Source: an uncultured Thermoleophilia bacterium (GTDB lineage: Bacteria > Actinomycetota > Thermoleophilia > UBA2241). From it: DNA of 64,000 bases. Each line of letters begins with the position of its first letter. Within the stretch, counting starts at the first letter, position 1. The translations under genes and the position numbers were made by a program. Of the stretch, positions 6,704 to 55,658 are shown piece after piece. The notes beneath the pieces were generated by a model. The model was not told the DNA's origin, made no database searches, and saw only the letters and a list, made by a program, of their open reading frames with translations. The stretch is taken from positions 17,045 to 81,044 of the forward strand of contig CAVXXF010000002.1 in NCBI GenBank assembly GCA_963765635.1. Direction: 5' to 3'.

Positions 6704-7933
6704 TCAGTCGAACGCGTAGGCGTCTTCGCCGTGCAACTGGCTGTCCAGGCCGATCTTCTCGACCTCATCCGGAACGCGGACCGGCCCAAAGATGTTGATG
6801 ACCTTGAGGATGATCCAGGTGACCACAAAGGCATAGGCCCCGATGATGAGCACCGCAAGTACCTGGACGCCGAGGAACCTCGGGTTGCCCTCGAGCAGCC
6901 CATCGGCGCCGGCGGCATTGACCGCGGTGCTCGCGAACACACCCAGGAGGATCGAGCCCATGATGCCACCCACGCCGTGGGCGGCCCAAACGTCCAGGGC
7001 GTCGTCCCACTTCATGCGTTCCTTGAACTTGACGGCGCCGTAGCAGACTGATCCAGCCAGCAGGCCGATGACGAATGCCGACCAGGTCGGTATGTAGCCG
7101 GCGCACGGCGTCACGCAGGCGAGGCCGGCGACGGCGCCGGTGAAGGCGCCGACCAGGCTCGGCTTGCCGTCGACCTTCCACGTGATGAACAGCCAGGTGC
7201 ACATCGCGATCGAGCCGGCGATGTCGGTGTTCACGAAAGCCTGGGCGGCGACGCCGTTGGCGGCCAGCGCGGAACCGCCGTTGAACCCGAACCAGCCGAA
7301 CCAGAGGAGTGCGGTCCCGAGCCCCACGAAGGCGATGTTGTGCGCCACGCTGCGCTCGCCCTTGGCGAACTTGCGTTTGCCGACGACCCAGACCGAGGCC
7401 AGGGCCGCCATGCCGGCACTGGTGTGCACGACCATGCCGCCGGCGAAGTCCAGGGCGCCCCACTCGGCGAGAAAGCCGCCGCCCCACATCCAGTGGGTGA
7501 AGGGGACGTAGACGAGCAGACTCCAGGCTACGAGGAACCACAGGTAGCTCTTGAAGTTGACCCGGTCCGCGAAGGCGCCGGTGATCAGCGCCGGCGTGAT
7601 GATGGCGAACATCTCCTCGTAGGTGAAGTGCGCCAGCGCTGGGATGGTCGGCGCCCACGGCCCCGGCGTCTCCCCGACCCCATTGAGGAATGCCCAGTCC
7701 AGATTGCCGATGAGGCCGAGCGGGCCGTTCCCAGAGAACGCCAGCGAGTAGCCCACCGCGACCCAGATGAACGTCACAACGCCCATGCTGATGAAGCTCT
7801 GCATCATGATCGCCAGGAAGTTCTTGCGGCGAACAAGGCCCCCGTAGAAGAACGCGAGGCCGGGGGTCATCAGCGCGACGAGCGCCGCCGACATGAGGAC
7901 GAACGCGGTGTCCCCAGCGTTGATTTCGCCCAT
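6704..7933 (-). CDS. amtB: Ammonium transporter
   Basis: GDTAFVLMSAALVALMTPGLAFFYGG, DFAGGMVVH, WFGWFGFNGGS, DDALDVWAAHGVGG. Confidence 0.96.
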   Translation of the reverse strand: MGEINAGDTAFVLMSAALVALMTPGLAFFYGGLVRRKNFLAIMMQSFISMGVVTFIWVAVGYSLAFSGNGPLGLIGNLDWAFLNGVGETPGPWAPTIPALAHFTYEEMFAIITPALITGAFADRVNFKSYLWFLVAWSLLVYVPFTHWMWGGGFLAEWGALDFAGGMVVHTSAGMAALASVWVVGKRKFAKGERSVAHNIAFVGLGTALLWFGWFGFNGGSALAANGVAAQAFVNTDIAGSIAMCTWLFITWKVDGKPSLVGAFTGAVAGLACVTPCAGYIPTWSAFVIGLLAGSVCYGAVKFKERMKWDDALDVWAAHGVGGIMGSILLGVFASTAVNAAGADGLLEGNPRFLGVQVLAVLIIGAYAFVVTWIILKVINIFGPVRVPDEVEKIGLDSQLHGEDAYAFD

Positions 7934-8144
7934 GCGAAATCCTCCTATGATGTGCCTGACACTCTAAGCTCGGAACCCTCAAGGGAGTACGTCGGCGAAC
8001 CTCACCCGAGAGCCAGACGCTGGCCGGGCATCGGTGGGGATACCCTCCAGCCACCAGCCCGATTGCCGCGATTCTTCCAGCTTGTGTAGCGGCGCGCAAG
8101 GCGGGCGCGCGGCGTGTCGCGAGGCCACTGCTGTCTTGGGCGGC

Positions 8145-8936
8145 TCAGCCCAGGATGAGCCGCTGCGGGTCGACCTCGTCGCGCAGGATGCGCAGCTCCT
8201 CGGCGTGCGGCGGCTCGGTCAGGGTCGATCGCGAGATGTCGACGGCGAAGCCCGTGTTCTGCTGCACCTGCTCCGGGGTGACGCCGTCATAGCGCTCGGC
8301 GAGGTACATCTCGTGCGTGGTCTCGTCGAACTTGAGCACGCACAGGTTGGTGACCACGGCGATGGGCCCGCCGCGCCGGTAGCCGGCGCGCTTGCGTGAG
8401 TCGCCGCCGCTGAGCCAGCCCGGCGTGGTCAGATAGTCGAGCTTCTCGACGAACTTCTGCACGCCGTGCTGCATGAAGACGATGTAGCCGCTGGCCAGGG
8501 AGCCAGCGTCGCAGGCGCCGCCGCTACCGCTGAAACGCACCTTCGGCGCAAGGTAGTCGCCGATCACCGTCGAGTTCATGTTGCCGTACCTGTCGACCTG
8601 GGCGGCGCCCAGGAAGGCGATGGTGTGCAGCCGCCGGTTGGCCACGTAGCTGAAAGCCTCGACGAGACCCGCGTTGAGGTTGGCGAACGCCATGACGCGC
8701 GGGTCGGCGACGGCCATGGGCAGCTCCTCGAGCGTCGGCCCGATGCCGCCGGTCTCGAAGAAGATGTGAGCGTGGGGGGCGTGGATACGCTTGGCCACGG
8801 TCGCGGCCAGCATCGCCACGCCGGTGCCGGCGAACAGCACGTCGCCGTCCTTGATGAAGCGGCCGGCGGCGATCGCCATCATCTCGCGGGGCGAGTAGGC
8901 AGTCGCGGCCGTCGGTGCGTCGCGCATCTCGCTCAC
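8145..8936 (-). CDS. CoA-transferase beta subunit (glutaconate CoA-transferase GctB-like)
   Basis: FAGTG...FFETGG, FLGAAQVDRYGNMNST, GSGGACD, FVEKLDYLTTPG, VDPQRLILG; GTG start overlaps the alpha-subunit stop (GTGA). Confidence 0.88.
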   Translation of the reverse strand: MSEMRDAPTAATAYSPREMMAIAAGRFIKDGDVLFAGTGVAMLAATVAKRIHAPHAHIFFETGGIGPTLEELPMAVADPRVMAFANLNAGLVEAFSYVANRRLHTIAFLGAAQVDRYGNMNSTVIGDYLAPKVRFSGSGGACDAGSLASGYIVFMQHGVQKFVEKLDYLTTPGWLSGGDSRKRAGYRRGGPIAVVTNLCVLKFDETTHEMYLAERYDGVTPEQVQQNTGFAVDISRSTLTEPPHAEELRILRDEVDPQRLILG

Positions 8937-9910
8937 CTCCGGTCCAGGCCCGGCGCGTAGCCGGCCACGGTGTTGGCCCTGATGCGCGCCAGCTGCGCGC
9001 CGCCGACCTTGTCGAGGTAGGCGTCCCAGCTCTCGACGCCGTCCACCCACTCGTCGAGATAGGCGGCCCAGGAGGCGTCGTCTTTGGCCGCCGCCTTGTA
9101 GTGATTGAGGTGGGCGGGGTCGTAGTCGTAGAAGTACGGGCAGGCGGTGGGGTGGGCGCCGTACGGCGCCAGGACCACCGCATCCACGAGGAAGGGCGGC
9201 AGGGAGTTGCGGTCGGGGTCGAGGCGCAGGTAGCTCTCGGGGACGATCTCCTCGCAGGTGACGATGACGGCGCTCGCGGCTTTGCACTGCTCCAGGTCGG
9301 CGAAGCTGAGCCCCCGGATGCGCACCGTGCCGTCGGTGCTCACCTGCTGGGCGTGGATGATCGAGACGTCCGGAGTAAGCGCGGGGAGGAGGACGACCTC
9401 GTCGTCCTCGTGGCCGAAGGGATCGTCGATGACGATGACCTTATGGCAAGGAATGCCGTCCTCGCAGCGCAGCTCGGGGGGGAAGCCCGACTTCTCGATG
9501 ACGTCGGTACCGAGCCCCGACTTGCTGGGGATGAAGGGTACGCCAAGGGCGCCGGCGAGGAAGCGCAGGCTCATCATGTTGTTGGTGTAGTCCTCGACCA
9601 ACAGCTCACCGCGCTCCACCGCCTTGCGGAAGCGGATGCAGGTGGGAGCGAAGCGGCCGTTGCCGCCGTAGGCGATGTCGAGGCGGCGCACGCAGCCGGC
9701 GCCCACGAGCACGTCCAGCGCCTGGCCATTGGAGTGCGCGACGAGATGCAGGTCCTTGATGCGGCGGCGGGCGATCTCGTAGGTCGCCGCCATCGGATTG
9801 CGCGTGATGGTGAAGCCGCCGACGGCGATCTGGCAGCCGTCGGGCACGAAGCGCTCGACGGCCTCCCCGACGCTCATGAGCTTGCCGTCCAGGCCGTTGT
9901 GCTCGGCCAT
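8933..9910 (-). CDS. CoA-transferase alpha subunit (GctA-like)
   Basis: KLMSVGEAVERFVPDG...GGFTITRNPMA, RFLAGALGVPFIP, PDVSIIHAQ, PYGAHPTAC. Confidence 0.9.
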   Translation of the reverse strand: MAEHNGLDGKLMSVGEAVERFVPDGCQIAVGGFTITRNPMAATYEIARRRIKDLHLVAHSNGQALDVLVGAGCVRRLDIAYGGNGRFAPTCIRFRKAVERGELLVEDYTNNMMSLRFLAGALGVPFIPSKSGLGTDVIEKSGFPPELRCEDGIPCHKVIVIDDPFGHEDDEVVLLPALTPDVSIIHAQQVSTDGTVRIRGLSFADLEQCKAASAVIVTCEEIVPESYLRLDPDRNSLPPFLVDAVVLAPYGAHPTACPYFYDYDPAHLNHYKAAAKDDASWAAYLDEWVDGVESWDAYLDKVGGAQLARIRANTVAGYAPGLDRR

Positions 9911-10077
9911 CTGCTGTCCCTCCTCGAGTCGGTGAGGGGTCTCTTAACGCGAAAACCCCAGCGAGCGCGATGCGTCTCAGCTGGGGAGCAAGGCCTGAGG
10001 GAAGGGCCGGTGGGAACGCCGCCGGCCCGGGCCATACGGCAGCGAGTTCATGATACACGCGGGCGGCGGCGATGCAA
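9911..10077 (-). promoter_or_regulatory. Promoter and structured 5' leader with terminator-like hairpin (copy A)
   Basis: TTGCAT-16-TATCAT, a GC hairpin, CCCTCAGGCCTTG, then CCCCAGC...GCTGGGG-TTTTCGCGTT; homologous to 16401-16575. Confidence 0.6.
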
Positions 10078-10135
10078 CATGCGCCTCGCCGCCCGCGGTC
10101 GCCTCGCGCGAGCGCCCCTGTGCTAGGCTGCGTAT

Positions 10136-10474
10136 ATGACGAGCGCGCCGCCGACTTTCCTCTTCTCGGGCTATGCGCGCCTGCCGCAGGACGTCAGTCA
10201 CCAGGCGATGTACAAGCGCGTCGGCGTGGTGCTCGAGGTCGACGAGGCCGGCGTGGTCGCCGCCTGCAGCACCACGCTGATGATGGCGTCGGCCGATACC
10301 TTCTTCCAGAGGCTGCTCGTCGGACGCAACGTGCTCTCCGAGCGCCGCGAGATCGAGGCGCTGGTGCGCTACCGCTACCGCGGCCATTCGCAGGGAGCGC
10401 TCGTCTCGGCGCTGCACAAGATCTTCGAGGCCGTCGACCTGAGCCCGCTGGTGCTCGGAGGGACGGCCGGCTGA
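10136..10474 (+). CDS. DUF3870-like protein
   Basis: FSGYARLPQ...YKRVGVVLEVD...CSTTL...RYRGHSQGALVSAL resembles DUF3870; extended -10 TGCTAGGCT 6 nt before the ATG (leaderless). Confidence 0.7.
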   Translation: MTSAPPTFLFSGYARLPQDVSHQAMYKRVGVVLEVDEAGVVAACSTTLMMASADTFFQRLLVGRNVLSERREIEALVRYRYRGHSQGALVSALHKIFEAVDLSPLVLGGTAG

Positions 10475-10573
10475 GCGACGAGCGCCGCCACGGCGAACAC
10501 AACGGCCGCCGCACGCAGGCGTCGTTTTAGGGCGTACACTCCTGGTCTGACGCGTCGCCTCGGGAGAGGGAAG

Positions 10574-12841
10574 GTGACTGCAGGCAAGGGGCCATCGGGC
10601 AGTACTGCCGCGCGCACCATCGCGCCGTGGCGTGCCGTGACCGGCGCGCCGTCTCCGGGGCTGCCCGCCAAACTGCGGCCGCCCACGGCGCGGGTCAGCG
10701 CGGTGGAACGCCGCGCTCTCCTGGAGGCGCTGGCGGCGGCCCCCGAGCCTCTCGTCCTGATATGCGCACCGGCCGGCACCGGCAAGACCACCGCGCTTCG
10801 TCAGTGGATCGAGGTCGACGGCCGGCCTGCGGCGTGGGTACAGCTGGATGCCTCGGACGACGATCCCGTCGTCCTCTTGATCTATCTCGCGAGGGCGCTT
10901 GGCGCCGTCACCGACATCGACCCGGGCGTGGAGAAATCCCTGGGCCTGGCGGTGCCGCCGGTGCGCGAGCGCGTGCTGCCGATGCTCGCCGATGCGCTGG
11001 CCGCTGCTCCGCCGTTCATGCTCGTGCTCGATGACGCGCATATGCTGCGGAGTGCACGATGCTGGGAGGTCGTGGCCTTCATCCTGCGCAGCCTGCCTCC
11101 GGGCGCCCAGCTGGCCCTCGGGACGCGCACCGACCCGCTGCTCCCGCTCTCGCGTCTGCGGGCGTCCGGCGAGCTGGCCGAGTTCCGCGCACCGCAGCTC
11201 GCTCTCGATCACGGGGAGGCCGCCGAGCTCGTGCGGCTGCACGGCTGCACGCCCGACGAGGCGGCTCTGGATGCCCTCCTCTCGGTCACCGAAGGATGGG
11301 CCACCGGCCTCCACCTCGTCTGCTTAGCGGCGGGCGGACGGCCGCTCGAGGAATGGCTGCCGCGGATCCGCGGCGAGCGCCGCGAGATCGCCGCCTACCT
11401 GACTGCCGAAGTCCTCGACAGGCAGCCCGCCGAGGTCCAGGCTTTCCTGCTGCAGACCTCGGTGCTCGGCGAGCTCACTCCCGGCCTCTGCAAGCTCGTC
11501 ACGGGGAGGGACGATGCCGGCGAGCTACTGGCGCTCATCGCTCATCAGGAGCTGTTCGTCGTGCCGCTCGGCGACGAAGTCCACCACTACCGCTACCACC
11601 ACCTCTTTGCCGAGATGCTGGAGGCCGAGCTTGAGGCACGGCACCCCGGCGAACGTGACCAGCTGCACCTCAGGGCCGCGGGCTGGTACGCGGAGCACCA
11701 TGACCCTGACGCCGAGGTGCGCCATCTCCTGGCGGGCGGTGACGTCACGGCCGCCGGTGACGTTGTTGCTGCGGCCTGGCCTGGCCTGTGGAACCGCGGA
11801 CAGGCAGAGACGGTGCGGCGCTGGCTGGAGTCGTTCGACAATCGCCAGGTACTCGGCCACAAGGCGCTGACGATGACCGCTGGCTGGGTCTACACGGCGC
11901 TCGACGACGGCAAGCTCGGCGAGCGCTGGGGCAAGGCAGCTTGCTGCGCGCCCATGGGCGACGCGCCGTCACCGGACGGCGCTGCCTCGCTGCGCTCCTC
12001 GCAGGCGCTACTTCGCGCGACCGTCGCGCCCGATGGGGTGCACCGTATGCGCGAGGATGCGGAGCTCGCGGCGAGCCTGGAAACGGTGCCGGGCACGAGC
12101 TGGTACGCCGACGCCCAGGTCTCGCTCGGCGTCGCTCGCTGGCTCTCCGGGTGGGCCCAGCGCGCGCTTCATCCGCTGGCCGTCGCCGCCCGGGAAGGGT
12201 ACGTGTACAATCCCTCGGCGGAGCTCGCGGCTCTCGGCTATCTGGCGCTCATCAGCGTCGACGAGACGGAGTGGGAGGCCGCGCAGGAGTACGAGGCGCG
12301 TGCATCGGCGCGCCTGACCGAGCTGGGGTTCGGCACCAGCCGGCGCTGCTTGCCCATGCTGCTGGCGCGGGCGAAGCTGCTGGCGCGCCGGCCCGACGCG
12401 GACGTTGACGCCGCCACGGCGGACGTGGACCGCCTGCTCGGCCACATGGTCCCGCATCCCTGGATGAGTCTGCTGACTCACGTCGTTCTGGGGGAGGTCA
12501 CGCTGGAACGCTGCGACATGGTCGCCGCCGAGGCCCATGCGACACGCGCCGCGGTTCTTCTCCAGCGGTACCCCGACGCGGGCATCCTGCGGCGCCGCGC
12601 CGAACGCTTGCGCGGCGCCGTCGAACGCACGCGTATCGCCGAGCCGCTGACCCCGGCCGAACATCGTGTCCTTGAGATGCTGCCCACGCATCTCACGGAG
12701 GCGCAGATGGCAGGGCAGCTCTTCGTGTCGCGCAACACGGTGAAGTCGCACCTTAAGAGTCTCTATCGCAAACTCGGGGCGTCCTCGCGGGCAGAGGCCG
12801 TGGCGGTCGCCCGCGAGACCGGGACTCTGCCGCCGGGTTGA
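10574..12841 (+). CDS. MalT-like STAND ATPase / LuxR transcriptional regulator
   Basis: Walker A APAGTGKTT, LVLDDAH, TEGWATGL, YRYHHLF, C-terminal LuxR HTH LTPAE...LFVSRNTVKSHLKSLYRKLG. Confidence 0.92.
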   Translation: MTAGKGPSGSTAARTIAPWRAVTGAPSPGLPAKLRPPTARVSAVERRALLEALAAAPEPLVLICAPAGTGKTTALRQWIEVDGRPAAWVQLDASDDDPVVLLIYLARALGAVTDIDPGVEKSLGLAVPPVRERVLPMLADALAAAPPFMLVLDDAHMLRSARCWEVVAFILRSLPPGAQLALGTRTDPLLPLSRLRASGELAEFRAPQLALDHGEAAELVRLHGCTPDEAALDALLSVTEGWATGLHLVCLAAGGRPLEEWLPRIRGERREIAAYLTAEVLDRQPAEVQAFLLQTSVLGELTPGLCKLVTGRDDAGELLALIAHQELFVVPLGDEVHHYRYHHLFAEMLEAELEARHPGERDQLHLRAAGWYAEHHDPDAEVRHLLAGGDVTAAGDVVAAAWPGLWNRGQAETVRRWLESFDNRQVLGHKALTMTAGWVYTALDDGKLGERWGKAACCAPMGDAPSPDGAASLRSSQALLRATVAPDGVHRMREDAELAASLETVPGTSWYADAQVSLGVARWLSGWAQRALHPLAVAAREGYVYNPSAELAALGYLALISVDETEWEAAQEYEARASARLTELGFGTSRRCLPMLLARAKLLARRPDADVDAATADVDRLLGHMVPHPWMSLLTHVVLGEVTLERCDMVAAEAHATRAAVLLQRYPDAGILRRRAERLRGAVERTRIAEPLTPAEHRVLEMLPTHLTEAQMAGQLFVSRNTVKSHLKSLYRKLGASSRAEAVAVARETGTLPPG

Positions 12842-12865
12842 GGCCGGGCGGGGACGGATTTCTCC

Positions 12866-15800
12866 ATGACCGCCTGTCCATCGTGCCTTGTCGAGCTCCC
12901 CGAGGGGTCGCGCTTCTGCTCGCGCTGCGGCGTGCGGCTGGTTGCCCGCGCCGCGCCGCGCGAAGAGCGTAAGCTCGTGACCAGCCTCTTCTGCGACCTC
13001 GTCGGCTTCACGGCCATGAGCGAAGTCGCCGATCCCGAGGACATCGATGCCCTCCTGCGCTCCTACCACAACGCAGCCCGCAAGGTGATCGAGGCGCACG
13101 GAGGCACGGTGGAGAAGTTCATCGGCGACGCTGTGGTGGGGGTCTTCGGCGTGCCCGCCTCCCACGAGGACGACGCGGAGCGCGCCGTGCGCGCCGGCCT
13201 GCGCCTTGTCGAGCGGCTCGCCGACGTGCCCAGCATGGGCGGGCGGACCTGCAGGGTCCGCATCGGCGTGAACACCGGCGAGGCTCTCGCGCGTCTCGAC
13301 GTCGAGCCCGGTTCGGGCCAGGGCCTCCTCGCCGGCGACGCCGTCAACGTGGCCGCGCGTCTGCAGGCGATCGCCCCGCCGATGGGCGTGATCGTCGGTG
13401 AGGCGACCTACGTCCTCACCGCGGAGGTGTTCGACTACGATCCGCTGCCGCCGGTGGCGCTCAGGGGCAAGTCCGCGCCGGTCGCCGCCTGGCTCGCCAG
13501 GGCCCCAGTCTCGCGCCTGGGCGTGCGCCCGGGCAGCGCGCTTCAGTCCCGGCACATGGGTCGGGACAACGAGCTCGCGTACCTCATCAGCCTGTTCGAG
13601 AAGGCGATCGGTGCGCGGTCCCCGCAGATCGTCCTCATCCTCGGCGATCCGGGCATCGGCAAGACGCGGCTGGTCTCCGAGCTTCTTTCGTATGTGGACG
13701 TGCGTCCGGGGTTGATCACCTGGCGCCAGGGTCGCTGCCTGCCGTACGGCGAGGGGCGCACCTTCTGGGCGCTCGGCGAGATCGTGAAGGCTCATGCAGG
13801 CATCCTGCGGACCGATGATGCGGAGACCGTCGCGGCCCGGCTTGAGCGCATGGTCCCTGCCGGCGCCGACAAAGATTGGGTGTGCGGCCGCCTGCGTCAG
13901 CTGGTCGGGCTGGAGGCCCCGCCGGCGGGCCGCGACGAAAGCTTCGCGGCGTGGCTGCGGTGCCTGGAGGGGCTTGCCGCGGCGCGTCCGATGGTGCTCT
14001 GCGTGGAGGACCTACAATGGGCCGACGATGCGCTGCTCACTTTCTTCGACTTCCTTGCCGCCCATGTGGGCACGGTCCCCCTGCTCGTGGTCGCCACGGC
14101 CAGGCCCGAGCTGCGCGCGAGCGGCCCGGCCTTCGCGCCGTCCGGCGGGCGAGCCACGAGGATGTGGCTGGAGCGTCTGTCTGACAGGGAGACGATGCAG
14201 CTGGTCGCCGCACTGCCGGAAGCGGCCGGCGTGGGCGACGAGGTGATCGGCGCCATCGCCCGCCGCGCGGAGGGCAACCCCTTCTATGCCGAGGAGTTGG
14301 CGCGGCTGATGGGCGACACCACGCACCGCGACCTGCAGCTTCTGGAGAGCGGCGCCGGCGCTCTGCCCCGAACGGTACAGGCGATCATCGCCGCGAGGCT
14401 CGACGCCCTGTCCGCGGAGAGTAAGGCCTGCCTCGGGGACGCGGCCGTGGTGGGGCACGTCTTCTGGGCGGGTGCGCTTGTCGCACTGGGCGCTGGAGAC
14501 GCCGTCACGGTGGAGGAGGCTCTCCGCGAGTTGCTCGACAAGCGACTCGTGCGCCGCGTGCAGGACTCCTCGATGCGGGATGAAGACGAATTCGCCTTCT
14601 GCCACGGATTGGTGGCCGAGGTCAGCTACCACACCCTGCCGCGTGGCGCTCGCGCCAGAAAGCACGCGGCGCTGGCGTCCTGGACCGAGGCGAAGGCCGG
14701 GGAGCGCGCCGACGACATGGCCGCTGTCCTGGCGCGCCACTTCGCGGACGCCGTGGAGCTCGCGCGCGCCGCCGGCGAGCCGGCCCTGGCCGAGCCGCTT
14801 GTCGCTCCCGCGGTCCACTACCTCTCGGTGGCCGGCGACCGCGCCCTGGACCTTGACGCGGCCGCCGCACAGCGGCATTACGAGCGTGCCCTCGGTCTGG
14901 CCGGGCTCGATCATGCAGAGCGCCCGGCGCTGCTCGCGCGCTTGGCGGAGCCTCTCTTCCAGGCCGCCAAGTATCGCGAGGCGGCCGACACGCTCAGCGA
15001 GGCGTGTCAGGCGCTGCTGCTGGCCGGCGACCGGCGCGCCGCCGCGCTCACGCTGGCGAGACACGCGGACGTCCTCTATGCCCTCGGTGACCCCGGCGTC
15101 ACCGACCTGCTGGAACTGGCGATGGCGCTTCTGGAGGGTGACGAGCCGAGTCCCGAGATGGCGACTGTGCTGGGGCGATACGGAAAGGCCCTGTGGCTGG
15201 CCGGCGACCCTCATGCCGGTCTCGAGGCGATCGACGAGGCCGTGGCGATCTCGAGGCGGCTGGCTCTCCCCGAGCCCGTCCTGCTGCTTGGATACCGCGG
15301 AGGGATCCGCTGCATCCTCGGCGACATCGGAGGCCTCGAGGACTACGTGTACGCGCTTGGCGCGGCGAGGGCGCTGGGTCTGGAGCGCGAGGCCGCACTG
15401 CTCATCTTCAATCACGCCGACGCCCTGCTCTCCTACGAGGGGCCTGCCGCGGCGGCTGTGGCCCTCCGGGACGGCATGAAGTCCGCCCGGAGACACCGCC
15501 TCGAAGAGCTGGCCGCATCGTCGCCGTCCGGTCCCGTCGCTGCGGTGGGGCAGATGGGCGAGTGGGATGCGGAGGCCGTGCGGCGCCTTACCGTGAACCT
15601 GATCGAGTCCCTCGGTCTGATGGGGGAGTGGGACGACGCCTTGGCCATGGCGGCGGAGCTTAGTCCCGCCCTGGAGCAGAGTGAGGCCGGATCGGACCTG
15701 GTGATCGTGTATGCGCAAGAGGCGGTCCTCAGAGTGGCGCGCGGCGAGGCCGATCTGGCGAGGCCCTTCGTCGATCGGCTCGAACAACACGGCCTGGCCA

Positions 15801-16339
15801 GCGAGATCCCGTGGATCCGGGCCTACGCGCTGCTGGCGGCCGCACCCGTGCGCCTTCACCTTGGGGACGCCGATGCCGCGCTCAAGCTCCTTTCCGAGTG
15901 GGACTCACGGGAGCGACCCGGCAGCGGCCCCAACTACGTCGTGTACCTGCCCGAGGCGGTGTGCACGGCGCTGGCCGCGGGCGACGAAAGGCTCGCGGCA
16001 CGCCTCGCGGGCGGCGTCGACTCGGCGCTACCCATGCAGCGGCACGTGCTGGCGACCACGCAGGGCCTCCTCGCCGAGCGGCGGGGCGAATACGAGACGG
16101 CGGCGGCCGTCTTCGCCGACGCCGCTGCCGGCTGGCACGGTTTTGAGATCCCCTACGCAGAGGCTCAGGCCCTGCTCGGGCAGGGGCGCTGCCTGCTGGC
16201 GCTCGACCGAGCGCCGGAAGCAGCGCCCGCTCTGGCCGCGGCCTGCGAGATCTTCGCGCGGCTCGGCGCCATGCCGGCGCTCGCGGAGACGGAGGCGTTG
16301 CTCGCTGGTGCAGCGGGAGACCCGCCACCGGGCGTTTGA
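12866..16339 (+). CDS. Zinc ribbon + class III nucleotide cyclase + STAND ATPase + TPR protein (paralog 1)
   Basis: CPSC..FCSRCG; FCDLVGFT, EKFIGD, GDAVNVAARLQ; Walker A GDPGIGKT; Walker B VEDLQWAD; GNPFY; helical C-terminus. Confidence 0.92.
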   Translation: MTACPSCLVELPEGSRFCSRCGVRLVARAAPREERKLVTSLFCDLVGFTAMSEVADPEDIDALLRSYHNAARKVIEAHGGTVEKFIGDAVVGVFGVPASHEDDAERAVRAGLRLVERLADVPSMGGRTCRVRIGVNTGEALARLDVEPGSGQGLLAGDAVNVAARLQAIAPPMGVIVGEATYVLTAEVFDYDPLPPVALRGKSAPVAAWLARAPVSRLGVRPGSALQSRHMGRDNELAYLISLFEKAIGARSPQIVLILGDPGIGKTRLVSELLSYVDVRPGLITWRQGRCLPYGEGRTFWALGEIVKAHAGILRTDDAETVAARLERMVPAGADKDWVCGRLRQLVGLEAPPAGRDESFAAWLRCLEGLAAARPMVLCVEDLQWADDALLTFFDFLAAHVGTVPLLVVATARPELRASGPAFAPSGGRATRMWLERLSDRETMQLVAALPEAAGVGDEVIGAIARRAEGNPFYAEELARLMGDTTHRDLQLLESGAGALPRTVQAIIAARLDALSAESKACLGDAAVVGHVFWAGALVALGAGDAVTVEEALRELLDKRLVRRVQDSSMRDEDEFAFCHGLVAEVSYHTLPRGARARKHAALASWTEAKAGERADDMAAVLARHFADAVELARAAGEPALAEPLVAPAVHYLSVAGDRALDLDAAAAQRHYERALGLAGLDHAERPALLARLAEPLFQAAKYREAADTLSEACQALLLAGDRRAAALTLARHADVLYALGDPGVTDLLELAMALLEGDEPSPEMATVLGRYGKALWLAGDPHAGLEAIDEAVAISRRLALPEPVLLLGYRGGIRCILGDIGGLEDYVYALGAARALGLEREAALLIFNHADALLSYEGPAAAAVALRDGMKSARRHRLEELAASSPSGPVAAVGQMGEWDAEAVRRLTVNLIESLGLMGEWDDALAMAAELSPALEQSEAGSDLVIVYAQEAVLRVARGEADLARPFVDRLEQHGLASEIPWIRAYALLAAAPVRLHLGDADAALKLLSEWDSRERPGSGPNYVVYLPEAVCTALAAGDERLAARLAGGVDSALPMQRHVLATTQGLLAERRGEYETAAAVFADAAAGWHGFEIPYAEAQALLGQGRCLLALDRAPEAAPALAAACEIFARLGAMPALAETEALLAGAAGDPPPGV

Positions 16340-16400
16340 GCGCGGCCCGGCGGTCGTACAGACGGCCGATTCTTCCTCCATTCTGTCGAGACAGCCGGGC

Positions 16401-16575
16401 TTGCTCCGCCCGCCGGCCGGTGTATCATGGCTCTTGCTGCACCCATCGCCGCAGCTGAGCGCCGTCTCCGCTCACTGCCCGCAGGCATTGGACCCCCAGC
16501 GAACGCTTCGGCGTCCCCTGGGGGTCTTCGCGTTTTCCGAGGGGCACACACACCGGTTCCTAAGGAGGGAGCTGC
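16401..16575 (+). promoter_or_regulatory. Promoter and structured 5' leader with terminator-like hairpin (copy B)
   Basis: TTGCTC-16-TATCAT, hairpin GCAGCTGAGCG/CGCTCACTGC, CCCGCAGGCATTG, then GACCCCCAG...cTTCGg...CTGGGGGTC-TTCGCGTTTT. Confidence 0.62.
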
Positions 16576-17808
16576 ATGGACTTTCGCTACACCACGGAGC
16601 AGGAGATGTACCGCCAGGCCATCCGCGAGTGGCTGGTCAAGAACCTCGAGCCGCGTGCCCGCGCCATCGACGAGGCCGAAGACGGCATCCCCGACGACAT
16701 CACGGCGGGCATGGCCGAGATGGGCATGTTCGGCGTGACGATCCCCGAGGAGTACGGCGGCATGCCGATCCCCGACGACGAGCGCCTGATCTACGCGATG
16801 ATCACCGTCCAGGAGATCGCGCGCGCCGACCTCAGCATGAGCACTCCTGTCTACACCCTGCTCACGATCGGCTGGTCGTACATCATCAATCGGTACGGCA
16901 CCGACGAGCTGAAGCAGGAAGTGCTGCCGGCCGTGGCCGCAGGCAAGGCCTTCGCCGGTATCAACACCACCGAGCCCGGCGGCGGCAGCGACCTCGGCGC
17001 CATCAAGACCATCGCGCCGTGGAACGAGGACAAGCAGGCCTTCGTCATGAACGGTGAGAAGGCCTACGTGAGCGGGCCCAAGGAATGCGCCAAGTGGGGC
17101 CCCCCGAGCGGCCACTGCACCCTGGTCAAGACCGACCCCGCCCAGGGTCACAAGGGCATGACGTTCATCTGGGTCCCGGCGCATCTGCCCGGCATCACGT
17201 ACACCACGTACAAGGACATGGGCCGCATGGGCCTGAGTACCGGCGGCTGGATCTACAAGGACGTCGAGCTGCCGCGCAAGTACATCCTCGGCGAAGAGGG
17301 CAAGGGCTTCTACGTCAACATGGACGGCTTCAACGCCGCCCGCGTGCTCGTGGTCGCGGCCTGCCTCGGCGGCGCCGAGAAGGCCCTCGAGATCAGCGGC
17401 GAGTACACCGCCCAGCGCACCACGTTCGGCAAGCCGCTGGGCAAGAACGAGGGCATCTCGTTCGAGATGGCCGACGACTGGATGCAGCTCGACATGCTGA
17501 AGCTCAACCTGTTGCGCGGCGCCTGGATGATCGGCCAGGAGCATACCGACCCCGGCCAGTTCAGTCGCAAGGAGATCAACAAGATCATCAGCACCTGCAA
17601 GTGCCTGGCTCCGACCTTGTGCCACGACATCGCCCGCCACGGGATGATGTACCACGGCGCCTTCGGCTACACCAAGGAGACGCCGCTGGAGATGCTGCTG
17701 CGCGGCGTCATGAGCTACGAGGTCGGCGCCGAGGGCGGCCTGATGATCATGCGCGGCATCATCGCCCGCGACGAGTGGGGCGATACGCACAACCCGTTCA
17801 AGGACTAG
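16576..17808 (+). CDS. Acyl-CoA dehydrogenase
   Basis: MDFRYTTEQ, IPEEYGG, TTEPGGGSD, NGEKAYVSG, QRTTFGKPLG, HGAFGY; SD AAGGAGG. Confidence 0.95.
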   Translation: MDFRYTTEQEMYRQAIREWLVKNLEPRARAIDEAEDGIPDDITAGMAEMGMFGVTIPEEYGGMPIPDDERLIYAMITVQEIARADLSMSTPVYTLLTIGWSYIINRYGTDELKQEVLPAVAAGKAFAGINTTEPGGGSDLGAIKTIAPWNEDKQAFVMNGEKAYVSGPKECAKWGPPSGHCTLVKTDPAQGHKGMTFIWVPAHLPGITYTTYKDMGRMGLSTGGWIYKDVELPRKYILGEEGKGFYVNMDGFNAARVLVVAACLGGAEKALEISGEYTAQRTTFGKPLGKNEGISFEMADDWMQLDMLKLNLLRGAWMIGQEHTDPGQFSRKEINKIISTCKCLAPTLCHDIARHGMMYHGAFGYTKETPLEMLLRGVMSYEVGAEGGLMIMRGIIARDEWGDTHNPFKD

Positions 17809-17842
17809 GGCGGAGAGCAAAGGCCGGGAGGAGGCCGCCACA

Positions 17843-19132
17843 ATGGAATCAGTCGAATGCATCGTCGTCGGTGGCGGCCTCGCCGGCCTCTCGGCCGCCT
17901 ACGGGCTGGCGTCGGCCGGCGTGGAAGTCATGGTACTCGAGCGCGGCGACTATTCGGGCGCCAAGAACGTCACCGGCGGGCGCCTCTACGTGAAGCCCGT
18001 CCGCGGCTTCTACCCCGAGCTCTGGGACGAAGCCCCGTACGAGCGCCCCGTCGCCCGCGAGCTCGTGACGATGATGGGCGACGGCGCCCACACGACCATC
18101 GAGATCGCCTCCGACCGCTTCGCCGGTGAGAGGCCGCAGAGCTACACCGTGCTGCGCGCCAGGCTCGACCAGTGGTTGGCCGAGAAGGTCACCGAGAAGG
18201 GCGCCATGGTCGTGCCCAATATGAAGGTCGACGAACTCCTGCGCAAAGACGGCCGCATCATCGGCATCCGCGCCGGCGGCGACGAGATCGGGGCGAGCGT
18301 GGTCATCGTCGCCGAGGGCGTGCTGCGGTTGCTCAGCAGCGCGGCCGGCCTGGCGGCCGAGCCGCAGGCCAGGCATCACGCGCTCGGCTACAAGGAAGTC
18401 ATCGAGCTGCCTGCGGGCGTCATCGAGGACCGCTGGCACCTGAATCCGGGGGAGGGTGCCGCACAGTTCTTCATGGGCGCCTGCACCAGGGGCATGATGG
18501 GCGGCGGCTTCCTCTACACAAACAGGGACAGCATCTCGCTGGGCATGGTCGTGGGCATGGAAGACCTGCGCCGCCGGCGCGACGGCACCGAGAGCTGGCA
18601 GCTCCTGGACGAGTTCAAGGAGCTGCCCCAGATCCGGCCGCTGGTCGCCGGCGGTACCGTGGCGGAGTACTCGGCGCACAGCATCCCCGAGGGCGGCATC
18701 AGCCAGGTTCCGAAACTCGCCGGCGACGGCTACCTTGTCGCCGGGGACACCGCCGGCCTGAGCCTCAACGCCCTCGTGACGGTGCGCGGCATGGACTTCG
18801 CCATCGCCAGCGGCTACTTCGCCGCCGAGGCGGTCAAGAAGGCGAAGGCGGCCGGAGATTTCTCGGCCACCGGCCTCGCCTCCTACGAGGCGTCCTTGCG
18901 CGAGAGCTTCGTGCTCAAGGACCTCGAGACGGCGCGGGCCATACCGGGCTTCATGGAGAACCCGCGCCTGTTCACGCACTACCCCAGGGCCGTCTCACGG
19001 CTGCTCGAGAGCATCTACACCGTCGACGAACGGCCGCAAGCCGGCCTGGTCAAGAAGGCCTGGAGGGGCGCGAGGCGCGATTTCCTGAACGTGGCGACCG
19101 TCAAGGACGCCTGGTCGATGCGGAAGATCTGA
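17843..19132 (+). CDS. fixC: FixC-type ETF:quinone oxidoreductase flavoprotein
   Basis: IVVGGGLAG, ERGDYSGAKNVTGGRLY, GGGFLYTNRDSISLG, EYSAHSIPEGG, RGMDFAIASG. Confidence 0.92.
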   Translation: MESVECIVVGGGLAGLSAAYGLASAGVEVMVLERGDYSGAKNVTGGRLYVKPVRGFYPELWDEAPYERPVARELVTMMGDGAHTTIEIASDRFAGERPQSYTVLRARLDQWLAEKVTEKGAMVVPNMKVDELLRKDGRIIGIRAGGDEIGASVVIVAEGVLRLLSSAAGLAAEPQARHHALGYKEVIELPAGVIEDRWHLNPGEGAAQFFMGACTRGMMGGGFLYTNRDSISLGMVVGMEDLRRRRDGTESWQLLDEFKELPQIRPLVAGGTVAEYSAHSIPEGGISQVPKLAGDGYLVAGDTAGLSLNALVTVRGMDFAIASGYFAAEAVKKAKAAGDFSATGLASYEASLRESFVLKDLETARAIPGFMENPRLFTHYPRAVSRLLESIYTVDERPQAGLVKKAWRGARRDFLNVATVKDAWSMRKI

Positions 19133-19144
19133 GAGGGAGGAGCC

Positions 19145-19426
19145 ATGCCGATGAAGATCGACGCCAAGCTCGGCCTCGATGTCTTCAAGCTCGACAAGGA
19201 GCCGCACATCGTCATCGACACCGAGGTGTGCAAGACGGTGTGCACCGACGACGCGTGCCTCTACGTATGCCCGGCCGACCTCTACGAGCGCGACGACCAG
19301 GGCCGCATGACCGTCAACTGGGAGGGCTGCCTGGAGTGCGGCACGTGTCTCCTGTGCTGTGACCATCGCGCTCTCACTTGGAAGTACCCGAGCGGCCCGT
19401 TCGGAGTGCAGTTCCGCATGAGCTGA
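19145..19426 (+). CDS. fixX: FixX ferredoxin-like protein
   Basis: HIVID..C...C....CLYVCPA, GCLECGTCLLCC, WKYPSGPFGVQF. Confidence 0.9.
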   Translation: MPMKIDAKLGLDVFKLDKEPHIVIDTEVCKTVCTDDACLYVCPADLYERDDQGRMTVNWEGCLECGTCLLCCDHRALTWKYPSGPFGVQFRMS

Positions 19427-19439
19427 AGGAGGTGACGGC

Positions 19440-20213
19440 GTGGACATCGTCGTCTGCGTGAAGACCAACCCGGACCTGCAGATGGTCCGCATCAAGAACC
19501 GTGAGGCGGTCACCGAGGCCGTGCCGTACAAGATCGGCGACCTCGAGAAGAACGCCCTCGAGGCGGCCGTGGTGCTGCGCGACGCCGTCGGTGGCAAGGT
19601 CACGGCGTTGTGCCTGGCCGAGGGGAACCGCAAGGCCGCCGAAGACATCAAGGTGGCCCTGGCGATGGGCGCCGACGAGGCCGTCGTGATCGACGACCCG
19701 ACGCTGGCCGCTCCCGATCAGGCGGCCGTGGCCGCGGCTCTTGCGGCCGCCGTCAAGAAGATCGGCGCCTGCGACCTGCTGCTCTTCGGCGAGGGTTCCA
19801 GCGACAACTACACGGGTCAGGTCGGGGCGCGCGTCGCCGAGCTGCTCGGCCTGCCGCAGATCGGCTACGCGCGCAAGCTCGAGGCCGCGGAGGGCGTCGT
19901 GCGCTGCGAGCGCAGCATGGACGACATGATCGAGACCCTCGAGGCGCCGCTACCGGCGGTGGTCACCGTGGTCAGCGAGATCAACGAGCCGCGCATCCCC
20001 GGCCTGATGCAGATCATGAAGGCCAAGAGCAAGCCCCTGCAGGTGTGGGCGCTGGCCGACCTGGGCCTCGACGCGCCGGCCCCGGTCCGCGAGATCGTCA
20101 GCAACCTGGCGGAGGAACAGGACCGCAAGAACATCCTGTTCGAGGGCACCGCGGCCGAGCAGGCCGACGCCTTCGTCAATGCCCTCATCAAAGAAGGCGT
20201 CCTGGGGAGGTAA
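19440..20213 (+). CDS. etfB: Electron transfer flavoprotein beta subunit (FixA)
   Basis: MDIVVCVK, ALAMGADEA, GEGSSDNYTGQVG, EINEPRIP. Confidence 0.93.
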   Translation: MDIVVCVKTNPDLQMVRIKNREAVTEAVPYKIGDLEKNALEAAVVLRDAVGGKVTALCLAEGNRKAAEDIKVALAMGADEAVVIDDPTLAAPDQAAVAAALAAAVKKIGACDLLLFGEGSSDNYTGQVGARVAELLGLPQIGYARKLEAAEGVVRCERSMDDMIETLEAPLPAVVTVVSEINEPRIPGLMQIMKAKSKPLQVWALADLGLDAPAPVREIVSNLAEEQDRKNILFEGTAAEQADAFVNALIKEGVLGR

Positions 20214-20215
20214 CG

Positions 20216-21163
20216 ATGGCCGCACTGCTGGTCTACAGTGAGAGAGTCGATGCCGCCTGCGAACTGGTCGCCGGTGGCAAGAAGCTGGCCGCGGCCCTCG
20301 GCCTCGGCGTGAGCGCCGTAGCCCTGGGGCCGGGCGCCGGAGCCGCGGCGAGCGCGCTCGCCGCGGCCGGCGCCGACACCGTGTACGTCAGCGAAGACGC
20401 CGCTTTCGAGGGCTGGCCGGCCGACGCCGTGGCCGCCGGCCTGGCGCAGATCGCCGAGCAGGCCGGCGCGAGCGACGTGCTCGTGGGCTCCACGCGGCGT
20501 GGCAAAGAGACGGCGCCGCGCCTGGCGCAGAAGCTCGGCGCCGGCTGCGTCACCGACGTGAACGACCTTGTGGTCGAGGGCGGCGAGCTGGTCGCCGGCC
20601 GCTACGCCTACGGCGGCGCCACGGTGGCGCGCGAGAAGCTCACCACGGCGATCAAGGTCTTCGCCGTGATGCCCAAGACGTTCAGCGCCGAGGGCGCGAG
20701 CGCCGGGGCGGGCGCCTTGGTCAACCCCGCGGTTGACGTTCGAACCGGCGTCAAGGTCGTCGACCGCCGCGCCAAGGAGGGCGACCACGTCAACCTCGAC
20801 GCGGCGCCGCTCATCGTCGGCGTCGGCCGTGGCTTCAACTCCCGCGAGGACCTGGCGCTCGGCGACGAACTGGCAGCGGCGCTGGGCGCCGTCGTGGGCT
20901 GCACCAAGAGCCTCGCCGACTTCGAGTGGCTCGGCGAGGACCGCATCATCGGCCTCTCCGGCGCGAAGACGGCCCCCGACCTCTACCTGAGCGTGGGCGT
21001 CTCGGGCCAGATCCAGCACACCGTGGGCGTCTCGGCGGCCAAGCTCATCGCCGCCGTCAACAAGGACAAGGAAGCGCCGATCTTCGCGCTCGCCGACTAC
21101 GGTATCGTCGGCGACTTGTACGAGGTGCTGCCGGCGCTGACCGCGCGACTCAAGAACGTGTGA
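20216..21163 (+). CDS. etfA: Electron transfer flavoprotein alpha subunit (FixB)
   Basis: IVGVGRG, GVSGQIQH, AVNKDKEAPIFALADYGIVGDL; ATG 2 nt after the etfB stop. Confidence 0.93.
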   Translation: MAALLVYSERVDAACELVAGGKKLAAALGLGVSAVALGPGAGAAASALAAAGADTVYVSEDAAFEGWPADAVAAGLAQIAEQAGASDVLVGSTRRGKETAPRLAQKLGAGCVTDVNDLVVEGGELVAGRYAYGGATVAREKLTTAIKVFAVMPKTFSAEGASAGAGALVNPAVDVRTGVKVVDRRAKEGDHVNLDAAPLIVGVGRGFNSREDLALGDELAAALGAVVGCTKSLADFEWLGEDRIIGLSGAKTAPDLYLSVGVSGQIQHTVGVSAAKLIAAVNKDKEAPIFALADYGIVGDLYEVLPALTARLKNV

Positions 21164-29720: not shown

Positions 29721-30446
29721 CTAGAGGTCGAGTACGTCGATGATCTCGCGGAAGTCGGACACCGACCGCTGGCCGGCATCCCGAAAGACCGACGAAGCGC
29801 CCTCACCTGGTGTGTCGATACCCACGAAGTGCGCACCGACGTTCCGGGCGAACACCATGTCGTTCTCGCCGTCTCCGACGATGAGCAGCTCGCTCGGCAG
29901 AATGCCGCACTTACTGCAGAATCTGTCCGCCAGAGATGTGTCCGGCTTCGGCCTCGACTCTTCACCCGTACCGAGGTAGTCGAAGTACTCCAGGATCCCC
30001 GTCTTATTCAGCCCTGCGACAGTTGCAGTGAGCGTATCTACGGTGGCGACGCCGAGTCTGTAGTCCTTGCTCCTCAGGTAGCTGAGCGTTTCCGGCACGT
30101 GCGGCAGAGCGACATAGGGGACGTCATCGCCGAGAGAGAACCGCTCGATCAGCTCCAGCAGGTCGTTCGTGTCGAAGGGCCGCTGCCACCCACATTCTTC
30201 AGCGTAGCTCTGGCAGGCGTCGAACAGAGCTTGCGCTATCTGCTGGTTGGTTGAGAACTGGATCAGGCTGTCAGGCGTGAGTCGATCGGGCAGATGTCCC
30301 AAACCCTCGCTCAGCTGCCGCAGCAGCGGGTCGGGGACCTGGTAGTCGTCCTTCAGACAGGCAAGGAGAGTGGCGTAGATGTGGTGCTGCGTAGAGTGGA
30401 ACTCAAGCAGAGTCCCGTCCTTGTCGAAGAGGATGCCTTTGATCAT
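29721..30446 (-). CDS. HAD family hydrolase
   Basis: ILFDKDGTL, LGVAT, PKPD, VGDGENDM; ATGA overlap with the upstream gene. Confidence 0.9.
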   Translation of the reverse strand: MIKGILFDKDGTLLEFHSTQHHIYATLLACLKDDYQVPDPLLRQLSEGLGHLPDRLTPDSLIQFSTNQQIAQALFDACQSYAEECGWQRPFDTNDLLELIERFSLGDDVPYVALPHVPETLSYLRSKDYRLGVATVDTLTATVAGLNKTGILEYFDYLGTGEESRPKPDTSLADRFCSKCGILPSELLIVGDGENDMVFARNVGAHFVGIDTPGEGASSVFRDAGQRSVSDFREIIDVLDL

Positions 30447-32418: not shown

Positions 32419-32473
32419 ACGTCCCCCTCGATCCGGCAGTGGCACTGATGCACTCTAGCAGACGCTTCCATAG

Positions 32474-32505
32474 CTGTCTAGACAGGTGGGGAATCATGAT
32501 ACAAT
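32474..32505. promoter_or_regulatory. GntR/HutC-type operator and extended -10 element
   Basis: Perfect palindrome CTGTCTAGACAG (32474-32485) and TGATACAAT between divergent genes. Confidence 0.65.
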
Positions 32506-32548
32506 CAAGATCCGCCAAGGCGGCGTCGAGCCCCAAGCTGGAGAGCGT

Positions 32549-55471: not shown

Positions 55472-55658
55472 GACGCGACGTTCTCGCGAGCTCCTCCTCC
55501 GAACGCCGTGGCACTACCATGACGCTGGTGCGACAGGTATCTTTGGTCGAACCAGCGTGCTCGGTCATGTGGGCAAGGGGGTGCCTCCCGGTGCTGCGCG
55601 CGGGCGAGAGATCGGATCGGAGTGACCGCCTCGCGGCGGTCACGGAGTCGGCTGCCCC

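Follow-up and report, generated by a model that had tools for sequence, protein, structure and literature searches.

Two leaders and the operons behind them

The DNA analysed here, called the window, is the whole stretch of 64,000 nucleotides (64 kb) from contig CAVXXF010000002.1 of an uncultured Thermoleophilia bacterium. It hosts two structured leaders, A and B, each placed in front of an operon of coenzyme A (CoA) metabolism. Leader A corresponds to the intergenic region 10077-9911 of the minus strand, and precedes an operon encoding a two-subunit family-I CoA-transferase (GctA-like subunit A, 8933-9910; subunit B, 8145-8927; both minus strand, Pfam CoA_trans). The solved structure nearest to this transferase is the glutaconate CoA-transferase GctA (1POI_A, E 1.1e-66). 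Leader B corresponds to the intergenic region 16401-16575 of the plus strand, and precedes an operon (16576-21163, plus strand) in which Pfam and NCBIfam models identify an acyl-CoA dehydrogenase (16576-17808), a FixC-like (17843-19132) and a FixX-like protein (19145-19426), EtfB (19440-20213) and EtfA (about 20200-21163). The models closest to the dehydrogenase are those of acryloyl-CoA reductase and of non-decarboxylating glutaryl-CoA dehydrogenase, both matched far under cut-off; the best named NCBIfam model, acryloyl-CoA reductase AcrC, scores 210.6 bits, below its cut-off of 640, and the crotonobetainyl-CoA dehydrogenase model 109 bits, with a cut-off of 540. A gene encoding a DUF3870 protein (10136-10474, plus strand; Pfam PF12986, E 6.6e-18) is divergent from leader A, and is separated from leader B by genes for a MalT-like AAA+/LuxR regulator (10574-12841) and for an adenylate-cyclase-AAA-TPR protein (12866-16339).

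The two leaders are built of the same parts in the same order. A promoter of the sigma-70 type, made of a -35 box fitting TTGCnn, a 16-nucleotide spacer and a TG-extended -10 box TATCAT, is followed, 7-8 nucleotides past the -10 box, by the pentamer GCUGC. A bulged hairpin comes next, and then a second, GC-rich hairpin based on CCCCAG/CUGGGG, a U-rich tail, a Shine-Dalgarno (SD) sequence and the start codon. In leader A (minus strand) the promoter spans 10077-10050, with the -35 box TTGCAT at 10077-10072 and the TG-extended -10 box at 10057-10050. The core spans 10043-9978. It opens with GCUGC (10043-10039), of which GCUG (10043-10040) is the 5' strand of a putative closing helix, P0. Helix P1 pairs 10037-10030 with 9995-9988, and the inner stem P1a, GGGCCGG/CCGGCCC, pairs 10028-10022 with 10010-10004; the apical loop is at 10021-10011, and a 3' bulge at 10003-9996. 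The C-rich junction (9987-9984) leads to CAGC (9983-9980), the 3' strand of P0. The terminator-like hairpin (9986-9946) is formed by CCCCAGC and GCUGGGG (arms at 9986-9980 and 9962-9956) and ends in the tail UUUUCGCGUU (9955-9946); the SD sequence is at 9925-9917 and the ATG at 9910.

In leader B (plus strand) the promoter spans 16401-16428, with the -35 box TTGCTC at 16401-16406, the TG starting at 16421 and the -10 hexamer at 16423-16428. The core (16436-16502) starts with GCUGC (16436-16440; P0 5' strand at 16436-16439), and P1 pairs 16443-16450 with 16484-16491. The inner stems P1a and P1b (16451-16461 with 16469-16478) enclose the loop CCGUCUC (16462-16468), and the 3' bulge is at 16479-16483. 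The junction ACCCC (16492-16496) is adjoined to the P0 3' strand CAGC (16497-16500). The terminator-like hairpin (16491-16536) has arms at 16491-16499 and 16518-16526, an inner ACGC-UUCG-GCGU stem-loop and the tail UUCGCGUUUU (16527-16536); the SD sequence is at 16562-16570 and the ATG at 16576. Neither promoter was called by a simple consensus promoter scanner. In orthologs of promoter A the -10 box varies within TAnnnT (TATCAT, TATGAT, TAGGAT, TACGCT) at a fixed distance from GCUGC; in those of promoter B it reads TATGAT, TATGCT, TAAGAT, TACTAT or TAGAAT.

Homology of the two leaders

A first-pass annotation of this DNA had described the leaders as homologous and structured, and direct reading confirmed all of the ordered parts that it had listed. 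The local alignment of A to B scores 55. Random segments of 176 nucleotides drawn from the same genome (68.6% G+C) score 18.5 on average (standard deviation 2.8), with a maximum of 33, and none of 3000 reaches 55. Three covariance models were built: R1 from B-type leaders, R2 from A-type leaders, and R3, restricted to the 66-nucleotide core, from 47 diverse sequences. Copy A is the second-best match of the B-only model R1 in the window (24.6 bits, E 1e-4; next full-length match 17 bits), and is recovered only with the search filters off, being missed at default filters. BLASTN of leader A on its own genome found only leader A itself, copy B being too diverged. Leader A scores 42.9 bits with R3 and 117.1 with R2, leader B 57.8 bits with R3 and 111.7 with R1.

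The first-pass annotation had also singled out a 3' bulge, CCNCA, and an identical tail, TTCGCGTT. Both are indeed shared by the two window copies. Family-wide, the bulge varies in length from 3 to 8 nucleotides, and of the tail only the U-richness is kept. The conserved core has to be placed elsewhere than at the bulge: it is made of the 5'-terminal GCUGC and of the C-rich junction with AGC, which overlap the 5' arm of the terminator.

Fold and conserved core

RNAalifold, run separately on the A-type and the B-type alignments, returned the same two-hairpin fold. Thirty-eight leaders from seven genera were aligned to R1. Standard pairs fill 96.2% of the cells in the paired columns, compared to 34-48% after sliding the partners by 1-3 columns. 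Two-sided changes were found in 19 of the 28 pairs, and none of 500 shuffles reached any of five measures. This alignment had been fitted to model R1. An independent MAFFT alignment of 47 diverse cores has two-sided changes in 5 of the 6 P1 pairs, with 94.7% of the cells paired (22-43% when slid). The outer stem of the second hairpin is more uniform, as in the 38-sequence set five of its nine pairs are constant and another two change on one side only; one relative, however, carries CCUCCAG/CUGGAGG in both its copies, a compensated change in this otherwise invariant stem. Two further alignments did not enter the analysis. The combined MAFFT alignment of A-type and B-type leaders was set aside, having P1 one column off and only 10 consensus pairs, and another included reverse-strand matches resulting from the near-palindromic terminator.

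Among 105 distinct members GCUGC is found in all, and a C four positions later in 97%. On the 3' side of the core the consensus is C (98%), Y, Y, C (100%), a C that some members lack, A (99%), G (100%) and C (96%, otherwise U). The apical loop CCGUCUC, or near variants of it, recurs in distant lineages within a GGCA...UGCC stem; some lineages have a short UCUC or UUUC.

Long-range contacts were also sought by eye. A pseudoknot or kissing contact of the CCGUCUC loop with GAGACG-like segments, a loop-to-junction contact, and an antiterminator formed by the 3' strand of P1a were all inconsistent across lineages.

Distribution and gene association

Of 36 genomes sampled from the same genus, 26 have orthologs of the transferase and of the dehydrogenase, and these orthologs are preceded by the same leaders. 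Model R2 detects its element in 39 of 54 genomes of the genus, in one copy each and in two copies in four genomes, plus weak cross-matches to B copies. In a sample of 151 genomes spread evenly over the class, R1 matches 17 of 25 same-family genomes, including all ten from six other genera. R3 matches 21 genomes of the same sample, 16 of 25 in family f1 and 4 of 25 in family f4; none was found in the other nine families, and families f2 and f3 in particular yielded nothing. Positive genomes have one or two copies, and the genome hosting the window has exactly two. Outside family f1 the strongest R1 match (29.3 bits) lacks both promoter and GCUGC and was rejected; the other outside matches score 20.6-23.3 bits.

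A second survey started from DUF3870. Eighty loci were retrieved by alignment to DUF3870, and each was scanned with R3. The element was found 113 times in 77 of these, at most twice per locus. Copies upstream of DUF3870 are all on the minus strand, and those downstream, mostly 48-360 nucleotides after the gene, are all on the plus strand. The first gene after the element encodes a family-I CoA-transferase subunit A in 58 cases, an acyl-CoA dehydrogenase in 42 and a family-III CoA-transferase in 12; one element, located 191 nucleotides from a contig end, is unassigned. A dispersed repeat, the alternative raised in the first-pass annotation, is not compatible with these figures, since 112 of the 113 elements lie directly upstream of three gene families, in no more than two copies per genome. 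Being found before family-I as well as family-III enzymes, the element is common to two non-homologous CoA-transferases.

Two locus types can be distinguished. Other genera of family f1 have a compact layout, with DUF3870 lying between the two promoters: on one side promoter A, element A and the CoA-transferase operon read away from it, on the other DUF3870 itself is followed by promoter B, element B and the dehydrogenase operon. Among relatives the gap between DUF3870 and leader B ranges from about 50 nucleotides to more than 4 kb. The second type, found in family f4 and in some others, has a single element, and the order is DUF3870, promoter, element, family-III (CaiB-like) CoA-transferase, dehydrogenase, FixC, FixX and EtfB.

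Several features accompany the leaders in part of the lineages. Just 5' of the leader B -35 box lies CTTCCTCCATTCTGTCGAGAC (16372-16392, plus strand), and boxes made of CTCCA, a few nucleotides and TGTCGAAAC or TGGCGAAAC are found 10-30 nucleotides before the -35 box of B-type promoters in this and other genera, and not at A-type promoters. Such boxes may be sites for an activator acting besides the RNA. In A-type leaders the 5' sequence GCUGCC(G/U)C has its complement in a segment containing GGCAG, located near the SD sequence or the start codon or immediately 5' of it (10043-10037 with 9916-9912 in the window). Of three relatives taken as examples, L106 has an exact 8-nucleotide complement, GAGGCAGC; many same-genus copies have CGGCAGAC, and B-type leaders have no complement. 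This pairing might serve to close a larger fold, or to hide the SD sequence in read-through transcripts. Many same-genus B-type leaders, nine of them listed by locus, host an additional GC-rich hairpin of about 70 nucleotides between the terminator tail and the SD sequence; the window copy does not. In one genome the same contig carries the dehydrogenase gene twice, at a distance of 2.4 kb and with equal scores; the sequence before these copies reads as coding, not as leader, and the duplicate possibly results from assembly or from tandem duplication.

Comparison to described RNA families

The region 9000-17500 and each leader alone were scanned against Rfam 15 (E<=10). The best matches to the leaders score 18.4, 17.2 and 17.2 bits, with gathering thresholds of 89, 40 and 42.5, respectively, so that no family is at or near its threshold for either leader. 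In the whole window only two tRNAs are detected at gathering thresholds. A full-text literature search found no description of a riboswitch candidate tied to these genes, nor of a CoA, acyl-CoA or carnitine riboswitch; two reviews alone mention a CoA riboswitch, once each. A passage of one of them, a 2022 review of riboswitch ligands, names CoA as a notable cofactor still lacking a known riboswitch (PMC9971707).

The first-pass proposal of a new structured cis-regulatory leader or attenuator, common to both CoA operons, is therefore supported by three lines of evidence: lack of Rfam matches, numerous further homologs with covariation, and gene association. Judging from comparative sequence data, the two leaders are copies of a previously undescribed family of candidate cis-regulatory RNAs, hosted by uncultured soil and sediment actinobacteria.

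Overlap of the core with a probable terminator

The second hairpin is presumably an intrinsic terminator of the high-G+C type. A complementary 3' arm was found in 99 of the 113 members, and the 12 nucleotides following it contain on average 5.59 T, compared to 1.89 expected (15.7% T in the genome). Tail sequences vary, their U-richness is kept, and some relatives have runs such as UUUUUUGCUUU.

In the predicted fold, P0 is a helix of 4 bp in which the 5'-terminal GCUG pairs with CAGC; it closes the bulged hairpin, from which it is separated by an asymmetric internal loop rich in C. P0 is part of the minimum-energy fold in 51 of 64 leaders cut 10 nucleotides past CAGC, that is, before the 3' arm of the terminator. 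The few changes in P0 are all wobble-compatible (G-C to G-U in 3 of 47 cores, A to G opposite U in one). The 3' strand of P0 and the junction both sit within the 5' arm of the terminator. As the C-rich segment and CAG make up this arm, the P0 fold and the terminator are mutually exclusive. Calculated energies are -48.5 kcal/mol for the terminator fold and -39.6 with P0 enforced in leader A, and -50.1 and -43.9 kcal/mol in leader B. The terminator fold is thus 6-9 kcal/mol more stable, and the default state should be termination.

The C-rich segment is plausibly part of a sensor, and not only of a terminator arm. Eleven of the 12 leaders found before family-III CoA-transferases keep GCUGC and C-Y-Y-C-C-AGC, and have no complementary 3' arm within 55 nucleotides. 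Moreover, the C following CAG is unpaired in the terminator fold, yet it is conserved in 96% of the members, and its sole variant, U, can still pair with G1. The same core may accordingly be used with different expression platforms. A loose pattern search carried out without requiring a promoter gave 381 unique cores, 171 of which passed a fold filter, many being false, and its count of leaders without terminator was not used.

Given its position 7-8 nucleotides after the -10 box, the invariant GCUGC would be at, or next to, the transcription start. The nascent RNA would fold into the long bulged hairpin P1-P1a-P1b, closed by P0 across the internal loop (5' side C-A/C-N-C, 3' side N-N-C-Y-Y-C-C). 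By default the more stable terminator would form, leaving the operon off. An effector fixing the P0/junction fold during transcription would block the terminator and let polymerase read through into the CoA-transferase or the dehydrogenase/ETF (electron transfer flavoprotein) genes, and the element would be an ON switch. The effector would most likely be a small molecule of the pathway, such as an acyl-CoA, CoA or the free acid substrate, and the element a riboswitch.

These proposals are not equally firm. That the leaders regulate through a terminator is regarded as probable. The specific ON logic opposing P0 to the terminator is favoured slightly, and direct sensing of a small molecule is a tentative assignment, falling a little short of an even bet. 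The reading as a whole, namely attenuator leaders working as effector-stabilised ON switches and likely to be riboswitches, is about evenly poised.

A number of observations weigh against it. P0 is only 4 bp long and, with three of its four pairs never varying, is beyond proof by covariation. Conserved nucleotides are lacking in the 3' bulge and in most of P1a, and the putative binding pocket would therefore be small. The window tails UUUUCGCGUU and UUCGCGUUUU fail the rule of a simple terminator scanner (5 T in 8). In terminator-less leaders, sequestration of the SD sequence by the C-rich segment is no better than in shuffled controls in nine of ten cases, and the tenth leader of this test carries a terminator; the best partner of the C-rich segment is located 15-20 nucleotides before the start codon in six of ten. 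Three metatranscriptome runs, containing 6-8% of the query words, consist of assembled contigs and are uninformative on transcript ends and levels; their contigs cover 9000-17800 throughout with fragments from relatives, and one of 426 nucleotides, which is possibly DNA, spans 16250-16655. All relatives are kin from two families, and the counts given above are not independent. Finally, DUF3870 has a promoter-like sequence of its own and lies outside the regulated units, beside the element in 77 of 80 loci and in constant orientation. Genes for trans-acting regulators are often so placed.

Alternative interpretations

The leaders could be constitutive structures lacking any effector, serving to stabilise the mRNA, to pause polymerase, or to release the terminated transcript as a small RNA. 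A helix at the first transcribed nucleotide can guard an mRNA against 5'-end-dependent decay, a promoter followed by about 100 nucleotides of RNA and a terminator is also the anatomy of a small RNA gene, and P0 is unproven by covariation. A mere stabiliser, however, needs neither invariant junction nucleotides nor an apical loop conserved across two families, and a terminator formed by default after the promoter would keep the operon silent as long as it was not relieved. The 11 family-III leaders that keep the core without a terminator arm imply that a terminated small RNA is not the conserved product, and the strict link to one pathway, with at most two copies per genome, also speaks against a constitutive leader, which is held to be quite improbable. 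The conserved blocks might otherwise be a DNA operator located after the promoter and bound by a repressor, for instance the MalT/LuxR-like protein encoded at 10574-12841, the pairing being incidental. They do begin at +1, a common position for repressor binding, and in the window the MalT-like LuxR regulator and the cyclase-AAA-TPR protein are encoded between the two leaders. A DNA site, however, has no need of the compensation observed in 19 of 28 pairs, where pairing is kept while the sequence changes fully. In other genera the compact loci still have both leaders, and neither the LuxR nor the cyclase gene, and the insertion between DUF3870 and leader B ranges from none to several kb and more; an operator is thus very unlikely. 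Even less credit is given to attenuation by a leader peptide, an alternative named in the first-pass annotation, in which a short open reading frame including a P-Q-A-L block would control the terminator. Both window copies can be read as P-Q-A-L over CCN CAG GCN TTG, and an AUG close to the 5' end, within CACAUGACC, is found in many B-type leaders. In the window B copy this place is taken by CCAUCGCC, and an AUG is lacking; A-type leaders have neither start codon nor SD sequence before the block; indels of 1-2 nucleotides and the bulge of 3-8 nucleotides interrupt the would-be frame, and the block itself belongs to the covarying helix P1, as its 3' strand. A conserved start codon is missing, and the suggestion does not hold.

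Antitermination by the DUF3870 protein is a more serious alternative, judged unlikely overall; metabolite sensing is rated somewhat above it. The protein, perhaps loaded with a metabolite, would bind P0 and the junction, or the CCGUCUC loop, and the same fold would compete with the terminator. DUF3870 is the only constant neighbour of the element, and no transcription factor gene is conserved in the compact loci. All 21 RNA-carrying genomes of the 151-genome sample also have DUF3870, and 127 have neither; three have DUF3870 and lack the RNA. The element never serves as leader of DUF3870 itself. A TG-extended, -10-like TAGGCT is located 8 nucleotides before the ATG of this gene (region 10078-10138), which would accordingly be expressed outside the regulated units. 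The order DUF3870, terminator-containing leader and operon recalls hutP-hut. The AF2 model of the protein is a compact alpha/beta domain of three strands and four helices (predicted local distance difference test 92.4), and a fold typical of RNA-binding proteins could not be recognised in it. The best Foldseek match (E 1.2e-3) missed the limit of E <= 0.001. The best VIA-align matches were middling, and fell to cofactor- or ligand-handling domains: the C-domain of a CO-dehydrogenase flavoprotein (Z 8.3), IscU (8.1) and the C-domain of LplA (7.8), all three in the range that the tool calls common, and NqrC/RnfG (about 6.3). The protein is near-neutral (12 K+R, 10 D+E). Distant homologs are located in or beside genes for fumarase, Sdh/Hdr-like proteins, succinyl-CoA synthetase, CoA-transferase, methylmalonyl-CoA mutase, carboxyltransferase and dicarboxylate transporters, sometimes with zero gap, and the RNA element is absent from all the 80 distant-DUF3870 loci scanned. 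A role as an enzyme accessory therefore fits DUF3870 as well as a regulatory one.

Searched by sequence against the PDB, the DUF3870 protein gave nothing (best E 0.3). It has no sequence match to the entry of a Bacteroides lipoprotein domain formerly assigned to PF12986. Relatives of the gene have TAGAAT or TACAAT at the place of the -10-like box, which suggests that the DUF3870 mRNA is leaderless or has a very short leader. On seven metagenome contigs distant DUF3870 genes, sometimes organized in tandem pairs, lie beside genes of the succinate-propionate route, encoding class-I fumarase, Fer4+CCG proteins, succinyl-CoA synthetase, a CoA-transferase of the acetyl-CoA-hydrolase type, methylmalonyl-CoA mutase, carboxyltransferase and CitMHS-type transporters. 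In a genome of family f4 a DUF3870 paralog (locus L203, 1417-2085) ends an operon for a tripartite ATP-independent periplasmic transporter (DctM), and is followed by a strong hairpin with U7 and then by an ATP-grasp, succinyl-CoA-synthetase-like gene; the core RNA model has no match there.

Other features of the window

The insertion of the MalT-like and cyclase-AAA-TPR genes (10574-16339) is confined to this genome or to its close kin. Two more adenylate-cyclase-AAA(-TPR) paralogs are found further along the window (55626-59072 and 62221-63999). The CoA-transferase operon is followed by an ammonium transporter (Amt) gene (6704-8144, minus strand) with its own promoter-like TTGCGC-17-AAGAAT and a 5' untranslated region of about 120 nucleotides. 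The order CoA-transferase A, CoA-transferase B, Amt is repeated in a distant locus, and hints that the pathway may handle an amine or release ammonium. A corrinoid-dependent methyltransferase cluster (30443-33951), composed of a URO-D-like methyltransferase, two B12-binding proteins and a GntR/UTRA regulator, is apparently unrelated to the leaders.

Implications

If the riboswitch reading holds, the element defines a new, orphan class of riboswitch-like RNAs, backed by unusually clean comparative data and controlling CoA-transferase and acyl-CoA dehydrogenase/ETF operons in uncultured actinobacteria of the Thermoleophilia type. One sensor appears to serve two non-homologous families of CoA-transferases, and its ligand should therefore name the substrate of a widespread gene cluster. 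That the element is the first natural riboswitch for CoA or a CoA thioester (glutaryl-, glutaconyl-, crotonyl-, propionyl- or acryloyl-CoA) is a distinctly doubtful proposition. In that event the ON switch would induce the GctAB-like or CaiB-like CoA-transferase and the ETF/FixCX-linked dehydrogenase as the thioester or free CoA accumulates. An RNA of 66-105 nucleotides offers a concrete object for asking whether RNA senses CoA thioesters, the gap noted in the review passage mentioned above (PMC9971707). Were DUF3870 the effector, this would be the first function for a domain family whose homologs, in many anaerobes, are neighbours of genes for the succinate, fumarate and propionate pathways.

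Comparison with known systems

Covarying stems, invariant junction nucleotides and one core probably associated with different platforms are features that the leaders share with riboswitches. The adenine riboswitch of pbuE/ydhL is an ON-type transcriptional switch, whose terminator makes use of the 3' strand of the closing helix. The leaders resemble it in having a promoter-proximal core, a putative short closing helix whose 3' strand is in the 5' arm of the terminator, and termination as the likely default. They differ in that the predicted closing helix is an invariant 4-bp one, and the core takes the form of one long bulged hairpin, interrupted by a C-rich internal loop, rather than of a three-way junction; similarity in Rfam is also lacking.

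Protein-dependent systems are comparable to a lesser extent. HutP and PyrR bind the leaders of the hut and pyr operons, and act by antitermination or attenuation. As in those systems, a small protein gene directly precedes a terminator-containing leader, followed by a catabolic operon, and the RNA element overlaps the terminator. DUF3870, in contrast, has no recognised similarity to either protein among the fold matches listed, and its binding to RNA is hypothetical. HutP itself was also looked for: PF09021 has no match in the genome hosting the window, and the control was found in B. subtilis. A resemblance of CAGGCA to the ribonucleic antiterminator (RAT) sites of BglG/LicT had been noticed in the first-pass annotation. 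Like RAT, the leaders have an RNA hairpin abutting or overlapping the 5' arm of a terminator; unlike RAT, the CAGG motif is not conserved across the leader family. The resemblance had to be discarded, as no CAT_RBD protein is found in the genome (PF03123, no matches, genome 91.5% complete; the control was found in 4 of 14 known genomes). RNA targets of ANTAR proteins are formed by two small hexaloop hairpins, and the leader by one long bulged hairpin with a loop of 7-11 nucleotides; PF03861 gave no match in the genome, in a search made void by a control that matched nowhere.

The E. coli cai/fix carnitine system, which has protein regulators and is not known to use a leader RNA, is comparable in gene content only. 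The second locus type unites the families of CaiB, CaiA and FixABCX. The window transferase is by contrast GctAB-like, and the dehydrogenase is far under the cut-off of the crotonobetainyl-CoA dehydrogenase model.

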